Shown one piece after another: positions 1 through 7,982 of a DNA stretch of 64,000 bases. The position numbers were made by a program, and so were the translations under genes. The notes under the pieces were generated by a model. That model saw only the letters and a program-made list of their open reading frames with translations. It did not search any database and was not told the origin of the DNA. Every line of letters begins with the position of its first letter. Position 1 is the first letter of the stretch. Origin of the DNA: Escherichia virus TH35; sequence record MT446408.1; one strand, 5' to 3'.

Positions 1-1
1 G

Positions 2-196
2 GCTAATCCTTTACTACAGCCGCAGTGCATCGGTATGGGTAAGTGCGCATTCCCTCGTCACGGTAAGGCCCATTGCCCATGGTATCGTGATTGGATGGAT
101 ACCACTGCACAGCAAGAAGAATTACGCATTCAGTTTTGGAATGCAATGCCAATCACCAATAATCCAGTGGCCAAAGATGGAGTATCAAAAGGATGA
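2..196 (+). CDS. Partial CDS, 3' end of an upstream gene truncated by the window edge (C-terminal ~64 aa, Cys/His-rich)
   Basis: Open frame from window start to TGA at 194-196, overlapping ATG of next gene (ATGA); translated by eye. Confidence 0.3.
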   Translation, partial: ANPLLQPQCIGMGKCAFPRHGKAHCPWYRDWMDTTAQQEELRIQFWNAMPITNNPVAKDGVSKG

Positions 197-1065
197 GTAT
201 CAAAAATAACCAAATCTTAAACGTATTCGACCTTGACGGAACTCTGTTTGATGACCGTTGGCGCTTAGACCGCATCAAGGTGGCAGGTCCGTTGTCAGAC
301 TATGATGATTATCACAGCGGTATTGGTTATGATCAGTTCTATCCTCACATTGCATCAGCAGTAGAGTCGGCATCTCTTCGCGGTGAGGCGGTTGAATATT
401 GGACTGCAAGGCCAGAAAAATACAGACAAGTGACTTTTGAACGTCTGGACAATGTTTTTCCTTTTGATGAATTTACAATCAAGATGAGAGACTATGGCGA
501 CAAACGTCCATCAACTATTATGAAATCTGCATGGCTATCGCACGCTTTGCGGCACGGCGATTATCGAATCATCAATGTATTCGACGACCGACAAGACGTA
601 CTCGCGCGGATGCAAGATGAAGCATTGTGTTATAATTCCGTTGCTCAAAATAAAATCGCTTTTACATTTAATCTTTGCAAGGCAGGTGAAGTGGTGCAAC
701 AATTAGCAATTGATCCAAGCGCAACAGGGCAAGAAGAGACTAAGTCTGTGGAAGTTGAACAATCTCCGGCAACTGCCGCCGATATTCTTGATGCAATGGC
801 AGCAACCTTCCGTGAGCGCAACGCTGTCTATGGCGATAACGCTGTGATGGTAGGTCAGGTTATGCAAGTGCTTTTCCCTAATGGCGTGACGTTGAAAACG
901 CCGGAAGACTACCACATGTGGCATCTGTTCGAGCTTAAGATTGTCAAGCTTACACGCTTCGCAATCAGCGGCCTGAAGCACGAAGACTCTATACACGATG
1001 ATGGTGTTTACAGCGCCATGTGTGAACGTCTTGTTAACACCCATAATATTAATTTCAATAAATAG
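193..1065 (+). CDS. HAD-superfamily phosphatase-like protein with an uncharacterised C-terminal domain
   Basis: ORF track 290 aa; N-terminal FDLDGTLF motif typical of HAD phosphatases; C-terminal domain function unknown. Confidence 0.55.
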   Translation: MSIKNNQILNVFDLDGTLFDDRWRLDRIKVAGPLSDYDDYHSGIGYDQFYPHIASAVESASLRGEAVEYWTARPEKYRQVTFERLDNVFPFDEFTIKMRDYGDKRPSTIMKSAWLSHALRHGDYRIINVFDDRQDVLARMQDEALCYNSVAQNKIAFTFNLCKAGEVVQQLAIDPSATGQEETKSVEVEQSPATAADILDAMAATFRERNAVYGDNAVMVGQVMQVLFPNGVTLKTPEDYHMWHLFELKIVKLTRFAISGLKHEDSIHDDGVYSAMCERLVNTHNINFNK

Positions 1066-1094
1066 TTTACTTGTGCGTTTCGATGAGTTATCTT
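1066..1094 (+). promoter_or_regulatory. Sigma70-like promoter (TTTACT-N17-TATCTT) overlapped by inverted repeat CGATGAG/CTCATCG
   Basis: Hexamers and spacing read from sequence upstream of 1130 ATG; shares about 50 bp of similarity with element at 7996-8040. Confidence 0.4.
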
Positions 1095-1129
1095 TATCTC
1101 ATCGAAACGAAGTCCAAAAGGATAAATAA

Positions 1130-1813
1130 ATGAAAAAAGTAATTGTTGTAACTGGCTGCAATTCCGGTCTTGGTAAATCCATTTTTGACACCCTTGGCGC
1201 TTACGGTCATGAAGTTGTCGGTATTGATTTGGAGAACGGCTATGACATCCGTAACGCGAAACAGATGAAAGAGCTTCTCTCTCAATACGACGTAGAAGGC
1301 TTGATCAACTGCGCTGGCGTCAACTCCAACAACTGGTTCGAAGATGTTAACTACGAAGAGTTCAATCGCGTTATGCACACCAACGCCTTCTCTTTCGTCA
1401 ACACGACTCAGGCCGCGCTGAAAAGTCTTATTGACAACAAAGGTTTTGTGATCAACATCGTTTCCAACGCTGCGCATATTCCTATGACGTCCAGCTTGTG
1501 TTATAATGCTTCCAAGGCTGCTGCGCTCATGATTAGCAAGCAGATGGCTCACGAGCTTACGCCTAAATACGGGATCACGGTGTTCTCTATTAGTCCTAAC
1601 AAGCTACGTGGTACTGGCATGTCCAAACAGATTGAAGATGCTGTTTGCGCGACTCGCGACTGGACTCCTGAGTATGCTGCTGAATACCAGAAAAAGGCGT
1701 TGATGAATGGATTGGAGACTGAGCCGCAAGTAATTGCTGACTTCATTCGACATATCTTAATTACGGGCGCATGGCGCTTTATGTCTGGTACTGATATTCC
1801 ATTTGGGAAATAA
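1130..1813 (+). CDS. Short-chain dehydrogenase/reductase (SDR) family oxidoreductase
   Basis: ORF track 227 aa; Rossmann motif VTGCNSGLGK and catalytic YNASK (YxxxK); RBS AAGGA upstream. Confidence 0.8.
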   Translation: MKKVIVVTGCNSGLGKSIFDTLGAYGHEVVGIDLENGYDIRNAKQMKELLSQYDVEGLINCAGVNSNNWFEDVNYEEFNRVMHTNAFSFVNTTQAALKSLIDNKGFVINIVSNAAHIPMTSSLCYNASKAAALMISKQMAHELTPKYGITVFSISPNKLRGTGMSKQIEDAVCATRDWTPEYAAEYQKKALMNGLETEPQVIADFIRHILITGAWRFMSGTDIPFGK

Positions 1814-1816
1814 ATC

Positions 1817-1987
1817 ATGACTATCAAAGTTGTTGTAGAAGTGATTGGCGACTTGGCAGAAGTGAAGATTGATCAAGAAGGCGTTGGATTTGAAGTAATA
1901 AGAATCGAAAACGCAAAGATTAACCACGAGCGCGTCGGTTCCATTGAGACTTATTCCATAGAAGGCAACACAGTAATTAATCAATAA
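1817..1987 (+). CDS. Small hypothetical protein (56 aa), below ORF-track size cut-off
   Basis: ATG 1817 to TAA 1985-1987 translated by eye; fills the gap between SDR gene and next gene on the coding strand. Confidence 0.3.
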   Translation: MTIKVVVEVIGDLAEVKIDQEGVGFEVIRIENAKINHERVGSIETYSIEGNTVINQ

Positions 1988-2007
1988 TATTTAATTAAGG
2001 AAACAAA

Positions 2008-2559
2008 ATGCCACATTTTAAAATTGAACAAATCGCCCTGTCAATTCCATGTGCTCAGCGCGCACAGAATTTCCTGGCTAAAATCGGCCTGACAGAATGG
2101 TTCCATGATCACGTTGTTGCTACTGGTCGCGTATTTGAAGCTGATGTCTTTAAGGGTCAGCGCGGCGATTGCACCAACGAAGCTGACTTGCGCTTCAACT
2201 ATCAGGCTGGCAACGGCACCGATGGCGGCGCTGGTAAGCCTCTTGAGCTTGAAATTCTTGACTATACAAAAGGTTGCAACTGGATTCACGAAAACATCGA
2301 ATACATCGATGCGCACGACAATCAGGTTAGCCATCTTGGTATGCACGTGACTGCCGCTGAACTTGCTGAATGGCGTAAGTTCTTTAAAGAAGAAGGTATT
2401 CAGGTTGCACAGGAAGTTGTAACTGACTCTCATACCAACCCGAACATTGCTGGTCAACGTCGTTACAACTATGTGATCTTTGATACGCGTGAAATCATCG
2501 GCGTTGATTTGAAGTTTATCGTGCGCTTGAATCAAGACGGTACTCCGTACACTGTATAA
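2008..2559 (+). CDS. Hypothetical protein (183 aa)
   Basis: ORF track; RBS AAGGAA upstream; no confident family assignment. Confidence 0.55.
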   Translation: MPHFKIEQIALSIPCAQRAQNFLAKIGLTEWFHDHVVATGRVFEADVFKGQRGDCTNEADLRFNYQAGNGTDGGAGKPLELEILDYTKGCNWIHENIEYIDAHDNQVSHLGMHVTAAELAEWRKFFKEEGIQVAQEVVTDSHTNPNIAGQRRYNYVIFDTREIIGVDLKFIVRLNQDGTPYTV

Positions 2560-2575
2560 CGAATCGTGAATCTGT

Positions 2576-2601
2576 GGCCGTCCTAATGGGCGGCCTTTTT
2601 G
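2576..2601 (+). terminator. Rho-independent terminator (GC hairpin GGCCG...CGGCC followed by T-run)
   Basis: Hairpin plus TTTTT read directly downstream of 2559 stop. Confidence 0.55.
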
Positions 2602-2613
2602 TAGGAGGCTAAT

Positions 2614-3156
2614 GTGTTATTTCTCCCTTATGACTTCGAAACAACCGGATTGACCGTGCACCCGAAAGCGCCGCTTGGGATGCAGCCGCGCCCTATTGAA
2701 TTTGCAGGTCTGTTGACAGACGGCAAAGAGATTCTTGAAACGTTTGAATTCATAATTAATCCTGAAATCGTGATTGAAGAAATTATCACAAAGATTACCG
2801 GATTAACAAATGAAGACCTTGAGTGCAATCCACCATTCATCAATTTTGTCCCGCAGCTAAAAGAAATCTTCAAGAAGACGGATGCCACTATCGCGCACAA
2901 CCATGCGTTCGATAAAAACATTCTTGATTATGCACTACAGCGCGAAGGACTTACGCTTGATGGTGTTAATTTTCCAGAAATAAACATTTGTACAGTTGAG
3001 CAAACCTTGCCTATTTTTGGCCGAAGAGTTAAGCTTCAAGAGCTGTATGAATTATATTTCGGAAAATATGAACAGAAACACCGTGCATTAGACGACGTAA
3101 TATTACTGCACAAAGTCTGCCAACAAATTGGCGTATATGACATCTGGAGTAAATAA
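2614..3156 (+). CDS. DnaQ-like 3'-5' exonuclease (DEDD family, proofreading-type)
   Basis: ORF track 180 aa (GTG start, RBS AGGAGG); Exo I YDFETTGL, Exo II AHNHAFD, Exo III HRALDD motifs. Confidence 0.8.
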   Translation: MLFLPYDFETTGLTVHPKAPLGMQPRPIEFAGLLTDGKEILETFEFIINPEIVIEEIITKITGLTNEDLECNPPFINFVPQLKEIFKKTDATIAHNHAFDKNILDYALQREGLTLDGVNFPEINICTVEQTLPIFGRRVKLQELYELYFGKYEQKHRALDDVILLHKVCQQIGVYDIWSK

Positions 3157-6053
3157 TGTTTCCACAATTGAGAGTTCGCAGCGGTTACACGTTCAAAGAA
3201 GTTTATGGACGGCATCCTGAAATTATAGCACGGCTCAAAGAGTTGGGCTGCGAAGTCGCGGCATTAGTTGATAACAACACATGGGGTCACGTTCGCTGGG
3301 AAAAGGAATGCCAGAAAAATGATATTAAGCCTATGTTTGGGATGGAGATTCCAATCATCGACCCTGATGCGGACCCGAAAAAGGGATTCAAACCGAAGGC
3401 TTGGATATTGGCCCTTGACTTGAAATCTTTTTACAATGCTACAACACTTGCAACGCAGCGCGGTGGACTTACCCGTTCAGAGTTCGGTGCGCTCGATGGC
3501 GTCGTTAAATTCTGTGGCGGTGCCGTGGAGTTGCTGCGGCCAGAGGACTACGACTATATAGACGTCAACCCATCATCGTTCCTTTTGGCAAAGCGCCAGG
3601 CATTGGCTCATCGTAGCAGTGGAAGGCCGCTGGTTTTAACCGGATACAATCACATGCCTTCACCTGAGCACGTTGACTTTGCTTATGCGTGGGAAGTGCG
3701 CGACACGGTTAAGCCGCATTGCATCGTTGACGTTGAAGACTTGCGCAAACAGCTTAAAGGCATCTTGACTGAAGATGAACTTGATCAGGCAACGGCCAAT
3801 GCTGTGGACATCGCAAACGGCATAGTCGGGCTTGACTTGAAATTGCGTAAGGCACCGATTATTCACCTTGCTGGTGACATGGTAAAGCTTGCTCGCGAGG
3901 GTATGGAGTACCGTCTAAAAGCAGGTCACATCAAAGAATGGACTCAGGAATACGAGGACCGCTTCAACGAAGAAATTCACCAGATTCAGCTGAAAGATTT
4001 CGACTCATACTTTCTGGTGGTAGCGGACCTTGTACGATTCGCAAAAACAAAAATGCTCGTCGGTCCTGCGCGCGGCTCATCGGCTGGTTCACTTGTTTGC
4101 TATTGCCTCGGCATCACGGAAGTGGACCCAATCCCGTATAAGCTGCTGTTTGCCCGATTCATCGACGTAAGTCGCGCCGACCTTCCTGACATCGACATCG
4201 ACTTTGAAGATACCAAACGCTATATGGTGTTTGATTATCTCAAAGAGAAATACGGCGAAATGAATGTTGCAAAGCTTGGCAACATCAACACGCTTAAGGC
4301 CAACTCAGTAATGGCGCAGGTTGGTAAGAAGTTCAACATTGGATACCACGAAACGGCCAACATTAAAAACGCACTGCTTGAATACTCATCCGGTGACGCC
4401 CGTTATGGTCACGGCCTGGAGGATACCTTTGCAACAACGACCACGGGCCAAGAGTTCGTGGCGAAATATCCTGACGCCGCGCGTTGCATGGGTGACCTTG
4501 AGATTCACCCTTCCCACACAGGGGTGCACGCAGCGGGAATCATCGTGTGTAATGACCCAATCTCTGATTACTGTACTGTAACTGCGGAAGGGATTGCGCA
4601 AATCGATAAGCCTGACAGCGAGTACCTTAACCTTTTGAAGCTTGATGCACTGGGCCTTCGTACTCTCGGCATTATTTCTGATACAGGCGTTATTGATGCT
4701 GAAACGCTCTACGGAATCAAGCTTGATGATCAAAGCGTACTTGACATTCTTAACGAAAACAAGATGTCAGGCATCTTCCAGTTTGAAGGTGACGCTGTAC
4801 GCTCAGTAACAAACTTTGTGCACGTCGACAACTTTAACAAAATCGACAACCTGACAGCTTTGGGTCGACCTGGCCCGTTGTCATCCGGTATGGCCCAGAA
4901 ATACATTGAACGCGCGGCAGGGCGTGCGCCGATTGAGTACGACGTGCCGCAGCTTGAGCCGTACTTGAAAGAGACTTACGGCGTGTTTCTTTACCAAGAG
5001 CAAATCATGGCCGTGGTTAAAGAGATTGGTTCATTTGACTGGGCGAAAACGTCAGCTGTGCGTAAGGCGATGTCAGGCCGTAAGGGTGAAGAATACTTTA
5101 ACAAGCTTGGCGAGGACTTTGTTGCAGGCGCAATCAATAACGGCGTACCGGAAGCGGATGCAAGAAAGCTTTGGCAAGCGATGGCCACGTTCGGGTCATG
5201 GGGCTTTAACAAGTCACACTCCGTGTCATACGCGGTCGTGACCTACTGGACCTTGTGGCTTAAGCGACACTACCCGTTGGAATTTGCCGCTGCCTGCTTA
5301 CGCGCTGCTAAGGACGAAGACCAGACGATTGCGATATTACGTGAACTAGCGAAGGAAGGCGTGGATTATGTGCCAATCGACCCTGATCACTCTTCGATGA
5401 ACTGGACCATCGCGAACGGAAAGCTAATCGGCGGCATCATGAACGCGAAAGGATACGGAATGGTGAAGGCGATGAAGTATATCGAAGCGCGTGAAGCCGG
5501 AACCTTAACGCAAAAGCAAAAGGACGCATTGGCCAATGCTGAAGTCAAATACGGCGACCTTACAGAGATGCACACAAAGTTCGGCTGGGCGTATAATGAC
5601 CCGTATCTGATTGGTGTGACGTCCGGCGCTTCAATACGCCAGATGAAGGAAGTCGGTGATGACGAGCGTGCAATAGTAATCGGCAAGTTGACAAAGAAAG
5701 TGCTTGCAGACGAGAACGAAGCGACACGCATCCGTAAACGACTTGAGCGCGGCATCTATACAAAGCACGGCAAGCTTAAAAAAGGTCTTCAAGCTGATGG
5801 CCGCTACGCAGAGTTTGACCAGTACGGAAACAAGCTTGAGACTCAGTTCATCGACCTTATGTGCAAAGACGACTCGACCGACTCGCCAATGCGCTTCAGG
5901 ATTCGTCCAGAAAAGTTCCAGAAGTACGGGAAATACATTGCTGAAAACGTCGGGAACGGCGCATTCTTCCTGATGAAAGGTCGCAAGCTTGAAGGCATTG
6001 ACATGTTCATAGTCGACGTTATCAAACAGGTGTATCCAGATGGCAACAAATAA
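3156..6053 (+). CDS. DNA polymerase III alpha-subunit-like replicative polymerase (DnaE family, PHP domain N-terminal)
   Basis: ORF track 965 aa; conserved GSSAGSLVCYCLGIT and DLPDIDIDFE polymerase motifs. Confidence 0.9.
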   Translation: MFPQLRVRSGYTFKEVYGRHPEIIARLKELGCEVAALVDNNTWGHVRWEKECQKNDIKPMFGMEIPIIDPDADPKKGFKPKAWILALDLKSFYNATTLATQRGGLTRSEFGALDGVVKFCGGAVELLRPEDYDYIDVNPSSFLLAKRQALAHRSSGRPLVLTGYNHMPSPEHVDFAYAWEVRDTVKPHCIVDVEDLRKQLKGILTEDELDQATANAVDIANGIVGLDLKLRKAPIIHLAGDMVKLAREGMEYRLKAGHIKEWTQEYEDRFNEEIHQIQLKDFDSYFLVVADLVRFAKTKMLVGPARGSSAGSLVCYCLGITEVDPIPYKLLFARFIDVSRADLPDIDIDFEDTKRYMVFDYLKEKYGEMNVAKLGNINTLKANSVMAQVGKKFNIGYHETANIKNALLEYSSGDARYGHGLEDTFATTTTGQEFVAKYPDAARCMGDLEIHPSHTGVHAAGIIVCNDPISDYCTVTAEGIAQIDKPDSEYLNLLKLDALGLRTLGIISDTGVIDAETLYGIKLDDQSVLDILNENKMSGIFQFEGDAVRSVTNFVHVDNFNKIDNLTALGRPGPLSSGMAQKYIERAAGRAPIEYDVPQLEPYLKETYGVFLYQEQIMAVVKEIGSFDWAKTSAVRKAMSGRKGEEYFNKLGEDFVAGAINNGVPEADARKLWQAMATFGSWGFNKSHSVSYAVVTYWTLWLKRHYPLEFAAACLRAAKDEDQTIAILRELAKEGVDYVPIDPDHSSMNWTIANGKLIGGIMNAKGYGMVKAMKYIEAREAGTLTQKQKDALANAEVKYGDLTEMHTKFGWAYNDPYLIGVTSGASIRQMKEVGDDERAIVIGKLTKKVLADENEATRIRKRLERGIYTKHGKLKKGLQADGRYAEFDQYGNKLETQFIDLMCKDDSTDSPMRFRIRPEKFQKYGKYIAENVGNGAFFLMKGRKLEGIDMFIVDVIKQVYPDGNK

Positions 6054-6462
6054 CCGTGAGCAGAAATACATATTCGTGCCTTTAAAGAAGCATTCAGAGT
6101 CAGTATTGAAGCTTCAACGAATCGAGTCGATGACTGGTGATGGCGTGCCGGACGTAATCGGCACCAACCGGAAAGGGCGCGGCTTTTGGCTTGAAATGAA
6201 GTTCTTTGAATCGTGGCCTGCAAGGGCCACCACTGCACCTTTCAGAAATGCATTTGAGAAAGGTCAATGCAGCTTTCTTTCTTCGTGGAATGATTGGAAA
6301 TACCCATCATTTGTTCTGCTTAAGGTTGATTCTGAGAAGATGTTTTATTTAGTCCACCCTTCTATTGAATTAAAGCGTTATAATACTGCAGACGTTCAAC
6401 GTGAGATAATCGTGAAGGGAACTATTCATCACATCATCAAGTATTTAGAGGAATTGTCGTGA
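6040..6462 (+). CDS. VRR-NUC domain nuclease (PD-(D/E)xK fold)
   Basis: ORF track 140 aa; GVPDVIG ... GFWLEMK motif arrangement. Confidence 0.7.
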   Translation: MATNNREQKYIFVPLKKHSESVLKLQRIESMTGDGVPDVIGTNRKGRGFWLEMKFFESWPARATTAPFRNAFEKGQCSFLSSWNDWKYPSFVLLKVDSEKMFYLVHPSIELKRYNTADVQREIIVKGTIHHIIKYLEELS

Positions 6463-7982
6463 AAACACAAGGAATGCGCCACCAATTATTGGCGCTTGAT
6501 AAAGCAGGCCGCAGAAAATACTTTGCTTATTTCATGGAGCAGGGTCTTGGCAAAACCTGGACCGCTTTGGCAGAGTTTGAAAAGCATTTTACCGCTGGCG
6601 CATTTGATGCCATGGTTGTAATCGCTCCTAACGGTGTACACTCAAACTGGATTCGTCGTGAAGCACCAGAGCACCTTTCCATTAAATGGATTGGTCATTA
6701 CTGGCGCGGCAATGACAAAATGAAAACTAAAAAGGGCAAGGCGCTTTGGGAGAAGATGTTTGCTGATCACTATCCTGAAGGCGAAGTGCCTGCACGAATC
6801 TTCTCATTCAACATTGACACGGTGAACACGCCAGTCGGTTATCAACACATTGAGTCCGTACTGAAGAAGTACCGCTGTTTGATGATCATTGATGAATCGA
6901 CGCGTATCAAAAATAACACAGCCAAACGCTCCATCAAGGTTGTGGAATTGGGACGGCTGGCAAAGGCCCGTCGAATCCTTTCCGGTACGCCGCTGCCGCG
7001 CTCGCCTGCTGATATTTACATGCAGTATCACTTCCTTGAAGCTGGCTTGCTTGGCACAAAATCGTTCCGTGCATTCAACTCTGAATTTACAGTCCTGCTT
7101 GAAGCGCACGACCCAGAGATGCAGGCCATTCTCAAGAAAATCGGCGGCAACGGTTATGGCATTCCGCAAGTGCCGCGCAAAGACCATTTTGGCCGACCGA
7201 TGTACAAAAACCTTGACAAGCTTATCCGGCTGATGGAACCGCACTATTTTCGTGCGACAAAAGCGGAATACTTGCCGGACCTTCCAGAGAAGGTGTACAA
7301 GTTTATTGACTTCGAGTTGTCGCCTAAACAACGCGATGTTTACGATGAACTCAAGAATGAGTACAACTATCTGATGGAGTACAAAGGCGAAGAAGAAAAC
7401 GTTAAGTTTGAGATGATCGCATCTCGCACTAAGATGAAGCAGGTGACATCAGGCTTTGTTAAGGTGTATGATGAGATGGTCTACATGGAAGACAACCCAC
7501 GATTCACGGCCTTTAAGGACTATGTGGAAGGGGTGCTGGAAGACGACCCAGAGCGCAAATTCATTGTTTGGGCCATCTTTAAGGAAGAGATGAACCAGAT
7601 TAAGGACTGGCTTGAGTCTGAAGGCGTGGTCACTGGTGTATATAACGGTGAAACATCAAAAGAGCAGCGCGAGTTCTTGATTGATGACTTCCAGAAGAAC
7701 ACAGTTGAGAACGGTGGAACGCAAGTCTTAGTTTGTCACGCTGCAGCGGCAGGCATCGGAATCACGCTTACCGCCGCCGACTTGGCAATCTATTATTCTT
7801 GCAACTATGACAACGAGTTGCGCAAGCAATCCGAAGACCGAAATCACCGCATCGGCACCAAATCAAGCGTGTTGTATGTTGATTTTATTGGGGTTGATAC
7901 CATCGACGAAGAAATTCAGCGTTCATTGAGTATGAAGTCTATGCTTGCTGATCACATCCTCGACGGCAAAAAGATGAATTAA
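6459..7982 (+). CDS. SNF2-family helicase
   Basis: ORF track 507 aa; motif I GLGKT, motif II IIDESTRIKN, motif VI QSEDRNHRIG. Confidence 0.85.
   Translation: MKTQGMRHQLLALDKAGRRKYFAYFMEQGLGKTWTALAEFEKHFTAGAFDAMVVIAPNGVHSNWIRREAPEHLSIKWIGHYWRGNDKMKTKKGKALWEKMFADHYPEGEVPARIFSFNIDTVNTPVGYQHIESVLKKYRCLMIIDESTRIKNNTAKRSIKVVELGRLAKARRILSGTPLPRSPADIYMQYHFLEAGLLGTKSFRAFNSEFTVLLEAHDPEMQAILKKIGGNGYGIPQVPRKDHFGRPMYKNLDKLIRLMEPHYFRATKAEYLPDLPEKVYKFIDFELSPKQRDVYDELKNEYNYLMEYKGEEENVKFEMIASRTKMKQVTSGFVKVYDEMVYMEDNPRFTAFKDYVEGVLEDDPERKFIVWAIFKEEMNQIKDWLESEGVVTGVYNGETSKEQREFLIDDFQKNTVENGGTQVLVCHAAAAGIGITLTAADLAIYYSCNYDNELRKQSEDRNHRIGTKSSVLYVDFIGVDTIDEEIQRSLSMKSMLADHILDGKKMN

Follow-up and report, generated by a model that had tools for sequence, protein, structure and literature searches.

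We analyzed a 64,000-nucleotide stretch of Escherichia virus TH35 (record MT446408.1; hereafter the window), of which positions 193–2559 carry genes for a HAD-type phosphatase, a short-chain dehydrogenase/reductase (SDR) and a predicted VOC-superfamily protein. These genes were found to be the 3′ part of a single operon, having the order UDP-galactopyranose-mutase-like flavoprotein, ThyX-like enzyme, HAD phosphatase together with a DUF6378/Nmad1-like domain, SDR and VOC protein, and we consider it probable, at roughly three chances in four, that they constitute a co-functional module of nucleotide metabolism. The best overall explanation, which we find about as easy to defend as to doubt, is that this phage-specific operon acts on a pyrimidine (deoxy)nucleotide for the DnaE replicase, where we infer the nucleotide substrate, the order of the steps, the NAD specificity and the metal site of the VOC protein. 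Gene-by-gene annotation had given three misleading labels, i.e. ‘FabG-like reductase, moron’, ‘polynucleotide kinase/phosphorylase’ and ‘hypothetical protein’. Taken together, the genes make up one conserved and phage-exclusive enzyme set that is tied to ThyX and DnaE-type replicases in phages of both Proteobacteria and Actinobacteria. Thousands of metagenomic relatives exist, and whatever the product may be, the set represents a piece of uncharacterised viral nucleotide metabolism. We found no description of this gene set as a unit, its individual genes being annotated in GenBank under labels that we could not uphold, and our literature searches returned nothing on DUF6378, on FabG-like phage SDRs or on modules combining an SDR, a glyoxalase and ThyX.

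The window was identified as that of a Wifcevirus-type E. coli myovirus, its first 8 kb being 94–96% identical to ~28 Wifcevirus genomes, which are those of E. coli and Shigella myoviruses of ~68 kb (e.g. Bas98-101, FEC19, WFC/WFH, ECML-117 and vB_Eco4M-7). Bas98, at 96% identity, served as the reference genome for checks of annotation, with certain regions being inspected. Directly 5′ of the HAD gene, a full ThyX-like gene is annotated in both Bas98 and WFH (5387–6196 in the Bas98 locus L001), the tail of which corresponds to positions 1–196 of the window, and the ThyX stop codon overlaps the ATG of the HAD gene by 4 bases. Strong plus-strand terminators of Bas98 are found right after the gene that precedes the flavoprotein and right after the VOC gene, thereby framing the segment from flavoprotein to VOC protein. 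In the window, the latter terminator has an 8-bp stem with 7 G–C pairs and a 4-nt loop followed by TTTTT (2576–2595); its site is also among the top-listed plus-strand terminators of Bas98 and is an annotated terminator in WFH and XcP1. Because of these flanking terminators and the overlap between the ThyX and HAD genes, we conclude that the genes at 193–2559 are the downstream two-thirds of one operon. The first-pass annotation of this DNA had placed them at the head of the replication block. The four open reading frames that it listed, at 193–1065, 1130–1813, 1817–1987 and 2008–2559, were indeed all present on the plus strand, and the exonuclease and polymerase genes do follow directly downstream, but since a terminator lies in between, the cluster falls outside of the polymerase transcription unit. 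The features of this region are, in order:

1..196, plus strand: 3′ end of the ThyX-like gene (open reading frame ending at 196 and cut by the start of the window)
193..660, plus strand: HAD phosphatase domain, N-terminal in the 290-residue protein (Pfam HAD_PNKP; PNKP-phosphatase type, without a kinase domain)
about 661–759, plus strand: variable linker of the 290-residue protein, between its HAD and DUF6378-like domains
760..1065, plus strand: DUF6378/Nmad1-like four-helix domain, C-terminal in the 290-residue protein, as predicted from family matches to PF19905 and an AlphaFold model
1130..1813, plus strand: classical SDR of a phage-specific subfamily, probably NAD(H)-dependent (adh_short match, catalytic tetrad)
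1817..1987, plus strand: accessory open reading frame of 56 codons (no family match; 6 Wifcevirus records)
2008..2559, plus strand: predicted VOC (glyoxalase-fold) protein of a phage-restricted family (AlphaFold, Foldseek)
2576..2600, plus strand: intrinsic terminator between the VOC and exonuclease genes, closing the operon
2614–3156: DEDDh exonuclease of the RNase_T family (family match)
3156–6053: DnaE-type DNA polymerase, directly after the exonuclease (family match)

The three large genes of the cluster are real, expressed and under strong purifying selection. Their dN/dS ratios were 0.04–0.09 for the HAD gene, 0.07–0.12 for the SDR gene and 0.03–0.14 for the VOC gene, to be compared with 0.02–0.03 for the exonuclease gene, and a glyoxalase-family protein as well as a reductase have been detected by mass spectrometry in preparations of vB_Eco4M-7 and ECML-117 (PMC7048862). 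The short open reading frame at 1817–1987 gave a different picture. No family was matched by it in profile searches, tblastn found it in only 6 Wifcevirus records, and the sole comparison that was possible gave a dN/dS of ~1.4, with no sign of purifying selection. It has no counterpart in WFH, where the SDR and VOC genes lie 90 nt apart. We thus regard it as an accessory or spurious open reading frame outside the core of the module, which may be no functional gene at all. The spacer between the SDR and VOC genes was in general a variable spot, holding one small open reading frame here, two in Bas98 (L001, 7821–7988 and 7991–8206) and none in WFH.

Conservation of the gene order was evaluated in 80 IMG/VR loci that hold a VOC homologue of 52–99% identity. 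Wherever the contig sufficed, the order was flavoprotein, ThyX, HAD, DUF6378, SDR, VOC, exonuclease, DnaE, a 140-residue protein and an SNF2 helicase, and among the 62 loci having 2.5 kb of flank the SDR gene was found directly 5′ of the VOC gene in all except one (61/62). The position beside ThyX and DnaE was constant in phages of Escherichia, Xanthomonas, Aeromonas and Microbacterium. Upstream of DnaE in Microbacterium phage Sparcetus (Krampusvirus) are found the flavoprotein (g55), a weakly NT5C-like HAD protein (g56), an SDR of 32% identity (g57), a VOC protein (g58; profile E 3e-29) and a protein with a DUF6378-like domain (g59; profile E 1e-24). That phage also has, before the module, a protein weakly similar to pyrimidine-dimer DNA glycosylase (g54, L003 4234–4782; E 0.0016) and, after DnaE, a glycosyltransferase (g65, L003 12029–13105), which are possible further partners in that lineage. 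A rearranged version of the set was present on L093, an AT-rich and phage-like contig of 49 kb that had been binned with an archaeal metagenome-assembled genome, with the flavoprotein, a dUTPase–NT5C fusion, SDR, a DUF1599/Nmad1 protein, VOC, ThyX and DnaE. The fusion protein (5965–6894 of this contig) joins a domain of the dimeric dUTPase family (PF08761) to an NT5C 5′(3′)-deoxynucleotidase, both scoring above cut-off, and would on paper degrade a deoxypyrimidine triphosphate down to its nucleoside; the slot of the helical domain is filled by the DUF1599 protein (27 bits, cut-off 25).

The L093 locus also links the module to viral blocks of ThyX, dUTPase and DUF1599 (Nmad1), such as that of the Asgard wyrdviruses, which has been described as a putative dUTP-to-dTMP operon. 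Such blocks share with the present operon a ThyX, a nucleotide hydrolase and a small helical domain, and L093 contains exactly these three in addition to SDR and VOC proteins. In the window, however, the hydrolase is a PNKP-type HAD protein and the UDP-galactopyranose-mutase-like flavoprotein, SDR and VOC protein are added, while a relation between DUF6378 and DUF1599 is weakly supported by sequence. Partial versions of the set were also seen. Gordonia phage Ranch and Mycobacterium phage Gumball encode, just upstream of DnaE, the flavoprotein, an NT5C-type HAD protein, a methyltransferase and an SDR carrying the family-specific RGW...A.EY motif, and none of the small proteins beside their SDRs turned out to be a VOC homologue when tested as such. 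Pbunaviruses (293 records) and a Ralstonia phage have the order flavoprotein–ThyX–HAD–DUF6378–Exo–DnaE, without SDR and VOC genes. From this distribution, the module consists of an older core, made up of flavoprotein, ThyX, HAD and helical domain, together with an SDR–VOC pair that is found in many but not all lineages. It is because the set is co-inherited beside ThyX and DnaE in ~60 viral contigs, and recurs in Sparcetus and L093, that we favor one nucleotide-directed pathway. The first-pass annotation had proposed a pathway of small-molecule or nucleotide modification, and these findings sustain its linked gene set and the direction toward nucleotides but not the modification itself, as no hypermodification enzyme was annotated in the regions inspected.

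The 290-residue protein encoded at 193–1065 matched the Pfam family HAD_PNKP at 33.4 bits (gathering cut-off 27.6), and its HAD motifs I (DxDxT), II (T/S), III (K) and IV (DD), represented by D13, D15, T71, K111, D131 and D132, were invariant in 50 homologues. The earlier call of a HAD-like phosphatase was thereby borne out, and judged by its sequence the domain is a catalytically intact phosphatase of the PNKP type. Comparing the family profile with the PDB gave Pnkp1 (4xrp, E 4e-8; 5uj0, 1e-7) and the phosphatase domain of T4 polynucleotide kinase (1ltq, E 1e-6). These matches covered the phosphatase domain only, and no P-loop 5′-kinase domain was found in the protein or in its homologues. 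The bifunctional ‘polynucleotide kinase/phosphorylase’ label is thus not upheld, the other half of the protein being DUF6378-like.

That other half is a second and better conserved domain at residues ~190–290, which had been missed in the first description of the protein. Of 25 close homologues, 17 matched DUF6378 (PF19905) with a best E of 4e-6, in most cases without reaching the cut-off of 27.1 bits, and the domain of the window itself gave no match. Invariant residues were R209, Y213, N216, K252, R255, H263, D265, S266, D269 and Y273. The AlphaFold model is a four-helix bundle with a pLDDT of 95, which was matched by named DUF6378 proteins at Foldseek probabilities of 0.92–0.99 and by an Nmad1 (DUF1599, PF07659) protein at a probability of 1.0 (E 0.06, TM 0.54), with the direct comparison of DUF6378 and DUF1599 by hhalign being weak (E 0.035, probability 1.5%). 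A DUF6378 profile search gave 2127 representatives, of which the 150 listed were all close relatives with nothing on other domain partners, and a search for further DUF1599 relatives of the L093 protein for profile comparison gave a single weak phage match. The HAD and DUF6378 parts were encoded by one gene in 22 loci and by two separate genes in 38, among 60 related loci, and being thus fused in some loci and split in others they are likely to work together. Aeromonas phage Gekk3-15 carries a HAD protein with two tandem DUF6378-like domains (L005 4792–6270; residues 286–345 and 396–490); in the same record DnaE is annotated as wrong-strand fragments despite a long plus-strand DnaE open reading frame.

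Pnkp1 and the T4 enzyme are the proteins of solved structure most closely related to the HAD domain, and this kinship could also mean that the phosphatase heals ends, i.e. that a PNKP-type 3′-phosphatase repairs DNA or RNA ends for the phage ligase, e.g. when host nucleases have cut them, with DUF6378 as an accessory or as a kinase-like substitute and with the SDR and VOC proteins having separate roles. Both PHROG and GenBank do name the protein polynucleotide kinase/phosphatase, and an ATP-dependent DNA ligase is encoded ~8 kb downstream. We nonetheless consider this unlikely, since the P-loop kinase is lacking, since the equivalent HAD proteins of actinophages and L093 are of the NT5C type with the dUTPase-like fusion of L093 pointing to mononucleotides, since the gene is translationally coupled to ThyX, and since end healing fails to explain why SDR and VOC genes travel along in unrelated phages. 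Compared with T4 PseT (polynucleotide kinase/3′-phosphatase) and bacterial Pnkp1, the protein thus has a homologous HAD phosphatase domain with intact motifs, but this domain is N-terminal and either fused or adjacent to a DUF6378/Nmad1-like domain, comes without a P-loop kinase, is encoded by a gene translationally coupled to ThyX, and has an NT5C-type deoxynucleotidase as its equivalent in other phages.

The SDR, having 227 residues, matched Pfam adh_short at 110.3 bits (cut-off 26.6; E 1e-31). Its cofactor motif at residues 8–15 is TGCNSGLG, with G13 and G15 invariant, and the tetrad N85, S112, Y125 and K129 was invariant in 33 family members, so that the intact TGxxxGxG and YxxxK (Y125-x3-K129) motifs described from the first reading were confirmed. 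Other invariant residues of the family were P118, S122, S128, E142, L143, P156, T162, M164, R176, W178, A183 and Y186, among which R176-x-W178, A183 and Y186 are common to the actinophage SDRs beside DnaE. In classical SDRs, an Asp at the end of β2 directs the preference to NAD(H) rather than NADP(H). As D33 at this position is conserved in at least 90% of the family, the phage enzyme is probably NAD(H)-dependent. Among NCBIfam models 213 families were matched, none of them near its cut-off (best 84.8 bits versus 215), and the FabG models gave 75.5, 75.1 and 61.7 bits versus cut-offs of 222, 269 and 296. No NCBIfam subfamily could thus be assigned to the SDR, and for that reason we do not find its ‘FabG-like’ label earned. 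The protein is a classical SDR belonging to a phage-specific subfamily.

That label, given in full by GenBank and PHROG as ‘FabG-like 3-oxoacyl-ACP reductase, moron/auxiliary metabolic gene’, would suit a situation in which the genes are ordinary auxiliary metabolic genes or morons, with FabG boosting fatty-acid synthesis of the host and the glyoxalase detoxifying methylglyoxal. The best PDB sequence matches of the SDR were likewise generic FabG proteins (E ~1e-12), with which it shares the Rossmann fold, the TGxxxGxG motif and the N-S-Y-K tetrad. A FabG identity appears however unlikely, as all FabG model cut-offs were missed by a wide margin (~75 bits versus 222–296) and as this short protein belongs to a subfamily with an invariant motif of its own (R-G-W-T...A-x-E-Y) that is found only in phages and next to their DnaE. 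Furthermore, the fixed position and strong selection across distant phages are unlike those of morons, and in cellular genomes no member of the VOC family was found outside three phage-like contigs. A role as ordinary auxiliary genes must therefore be considered very improbable. Models of the EntA/DhbA type were among the better NCBIfam matches, all far below cut-off. In aromatic catabolism of the BphB/BphC type, an NAD-dependent SDR comes first and a VOC enzyme then acts on its vicinal-oxygen product; the present cluster resembles such pairs in having an SDR and then a VOC protein, but has no ring-hydroxylating partner and lies in a context of phage replication. A role of the SDR as a FolM-like reductase in folate or pterin support was set aside by reasoning, as ThyX leaves tetrahydrofolate unoxidised and neither a GTP cyclohydrolase nor any other pterin gene accompanies the SDR.

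The gene at 2008–2559, one of two that had at first been listed as unknowns, is a real gene and its product is, according to the predicted structure, a VOC-superfamily protein of glyoxalase fold; the other, at 1817–1987, is the accessory or doubtful frame described above. The AlphaFold model, with a pLDDT of 93, has two β-α-β-β-β modules, and a Foldseek search of the PDB gave methylmalonyl-CoA epimerases and HPPD at probability 1.0, although with identities of ≤16%, and in all 21 VOC matches at E ≤1e-3. Pfam Glyoxalase_4 was matched below cut-off (12.9 bits versus 27; 23.5 bits for the L093 homologue), and a few homologues have a precomputed PF13669 match. The family comprised 690 homologues, many of them on contigs of ~60–72 kb, with 42 invariant columns. 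Its invariant polar residues include Q8, E80, E82, H109, H113 and D167, and of these Q8, E80/E82, H109/H113 and D167, lying on strands 1, 4, 5 and 8, may by topology form a metal site. Relative to enzymes of the methylmalonyl-CoA epimerase or glyoxalase I type, the protein has the same single-chain, paired β-α-β-β-β fold, with methylmalonyl-CoA epimerases as its top Foldseek matches and invariant polar residues placed, by topology, on the metal-ligand strands of that enzyme; it differs in sequence (identity ≤16%, TM ~0.5), in an inserted loop at residues 65–79 and in being without a context of CoA or glutathione. When one genome each of 185,579 cellular species was surveyed, the family was found in three contigs only, all of them phage-like, and it is hence essentially phage-restricted.

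As for the upstream partners, the ThyX-like protein matched Pfam Thy1 at ~103 bits (E 1.7e-29) but reached only 23 bits with T. maritima ThyX (E 4e-4), and the signature RHRxxSxxxxSxR is here RTRxxAxxxxTxR, with S88 replaced by T. The enzyme is thus divergent, and a canonical activity is assumed here. The ThyX of L093 likewise has RTR. The flavoprotein, of 331 residues and labeled ‘hypothetical protein’ (‘hyp331’, phrog_4828, Bas98_0053), lies outside the window, at 3866–4861 of L001. Its family profile matched UDP-galactopyranose mutase at E 5e-7, including the YFPx..YRAS and GRFG.W segments, and the protein is of Rossmann type with an N-terminal GxGxxG and a C-terminal GRFxxW motif. The same flavoprotein family precedes the phosphatase and SDR genes in Sparcetus, Ranch, Gumball, L093 and Pbunavirus NH-4. 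The combination of SDR, VOC protein and UDP-galactopyranose-mutase-like flavoprotein is part of none of the closest known systems.

It is these partners, i.e. ThyX, the dUTPase-like domain, the phosphatases of NT5C and PNKP type, the flavoprotein and the helical domain, that suggest a pyrimidine deoxynucleotide as the substrate of the module. VOC enzymes in general use a metal to stabilise an enediolate. A chemistry can accordingly be sketched, which we put forward as tentative and more probably wrong than right in its details, of dephosphorylation followed by oxidation and isomerisation. The helical and HAD domains would bind and dephosphorylate a nucleotide, the NAD-dependent SDR would oxidise a hydroxyl group on the nucleoside or sugar thus freed, giving a carbonyl, and the metal-dependent VOC protein, using the resulting vicinal oxygens, would enolise this product to an enediolate and then isomerise or epimerise it.

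Several observations weigh against a common nucleotide-directed function. The SDR matches no characterised NCBIfam subfamily, and the closest relatives of the HAD domain in the window are polynucleotide 3′-phosphatases, not mononucleotidases. A catabolic phosphatase is, moreover, an odd first step toward a DNA precursor, and a nucleotide kinase is absent. A search with the VOC family profile found no relative among PDB sequences. One viral contig of 70.6 kb has its VOC homologue in isolation (L086 7896–8504), flanked by a gene for a portal-like protein of 1148 residues and by a terminase-like gene that lies on the opposite strand, with no SDR, HAD or DnaE gene within 8 kb. Finally, the synteny was observed for the most part within one broad phage lineage, so that some of it may be owed to vertical descent and not to functional coupling.

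A more far-reaching possibility is that the operon provides a route to a base- or sugar-modified pyrimidine nucleotide, which the DnaE polymerase would put into DNA or in favor of which the canonical nucleotide would be excluded, so that the DNA escapes restriction. If true, this would explain the resistance to type I, II and III restriction of Wifceviruses having 36 EcoRI sites, and SDR and VOC enzymes would for the first time be involved in a pathway of DNA modification. In the BASEL study, Wifceviruses withstood every defence system tested, restriction systems included, with a single exception, and its authors noted that no known genome protection mechanism is present in these phages. The resistance is seen despite many restriction sites in Bas98 (36 for EcoRI, 6 for EcoRV, 93 for EcoCFT_II and 82 for EcoP1_I); the window has 12 EcoRI and 84 AGACC sites. 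Also in line with modification are the resemblance of the helical domain to Pfam ‘Nucleotide modification associated domain 1’, the divergence of the ThyX-like enzyme (RTR for RHR; 23 bits to the solved ThyX), the phage-only nature of the families and the number of enzymes, five or six exceeding what a supply of dTMP needs. Furthermore, the layout of base-replacing phages pairs an enzyme of the thymidylate-synthase type with an NTP pyrophosphatase and a nucleotidase, as exemplified by the dCMP hydroxymethylase and dCTPase of T4, the dTMP nucleotidases of SPO1 and PBS2, and PurZ/MazZ/DatZ of the Z-genome phages. The present operon shares with those systems such a synthase and a pyrophosphatase and/or nucleotidase encoded with replication genes, but its synthase is of ThyX type and not ThyA type, a dNMP kinase is lacking and no replaced base is known, and SDR and VOC enzymes are, to our knowledge, found in none of those systems.

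Several points speak against modification. No modified base has been reported, and our literature searches returned neither restriction digests nor modification data on the DNA of Wifcevirus, Myosmarvirus or Carpasinavirus. Sequencing and PCR amplification of the genomes proceed as usual, and vB_Eco4M-7 can be rebooted from PCR products (PMC11074155), neither of which is decisive. The annotation of the inspected Bas98 regions, a check that did not extend to the small early genes, lists no dNMP kinase, transferase or glycosylase and no hypermodification gene of a known kind, nor does it list any of the signature enzymes ThyA-like hydroxymethylase, 5-HMUDK, aGPT-Pplase, DpdA/QueCDE or glycosyltransferase. 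The Pbunaviruses share ThyX, HAD and DUF6378 without having SDR and VOC proteins, and the restriction resistance could stem from one of the many small early proteins. EcoP1_I still restricts Wifceviruses, which were fully sensitive to it in the BASEL study. Modification of the DNA is thus possible, although we would not expect it. An unusually fast replication cycle is another possible contributor to restriction escape. A study cited by another paper reportedly found 3–5 min from adsorption to progeny release. The operon nevertheless gives a short list of candidate genes for the unexplained restriction resistance observed in the BASEL study, and the isolates, together with the published synthetic reboot system for one Wifcevirus, make the question directly testable. 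Should the DNA prove unmodified, the module would still merit attention as a system accessory to flavin-dependent thymidylate synthesis, with Nmad1/DUF6378 proteins as helpers.

The insensitivity of Wifceviruses to all but one of the tested defence systems could alternatively reflect counter-defence or host takeover, with the enzymes destroying or transforming a host molecule derived from nucleotides, such as an immune signal or a chain-terminating analogue. The families being phage-restricted agrees with this idea, and the logic of a phosphatase with a pyrophosphatase-like partner suits detoxification. Known counter-defence genes are, however, typically variable and located in early regions, whereas these genes keep their place in the replication module, beside ThyX and DnaE, in phages of widely differing hosts, and no similarity to known anti-defence enzymes was seen. 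We hence regard counter-defence as improbable, and the preferred interpretation remains that of a nucleotide-directed module serving the DnaE replicase.

With regards to the extent of the window, its far end matches the primase region of the Wifcevirus genomes, and because of this alignment it must hold nearly the whole phage, with ~4.7 kb located directly upstream of position 1 being absent. In relatives, that stretch of ~4.7 kb encodes a Dda-like helicase, three hypothetical genes and most of the ThyX-like gene. Related Wifceviruses have a direct terminal repeat of ~3.5–3.7 kb. Matches to sigma-70-like promoters were no more numerous in the region than in shuffled sequence. The best of them, with 11 of 12 positions (TTGACA-18-TAAAAT), lies on the minus strand at 2044–2015, antisense at the start of the VOC gene, and given that the count equals the shuffled expectation it is probably due to chance. 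The 140-residue protein following DnaE (6040–6462), labeled ‘DNA helicase’ in relatives and without a Pfam match, has a GVPD...EMK stretch resembling a PD-(D/E)xK nuclease motif, and it was kept after DnaE in most of the related loci.

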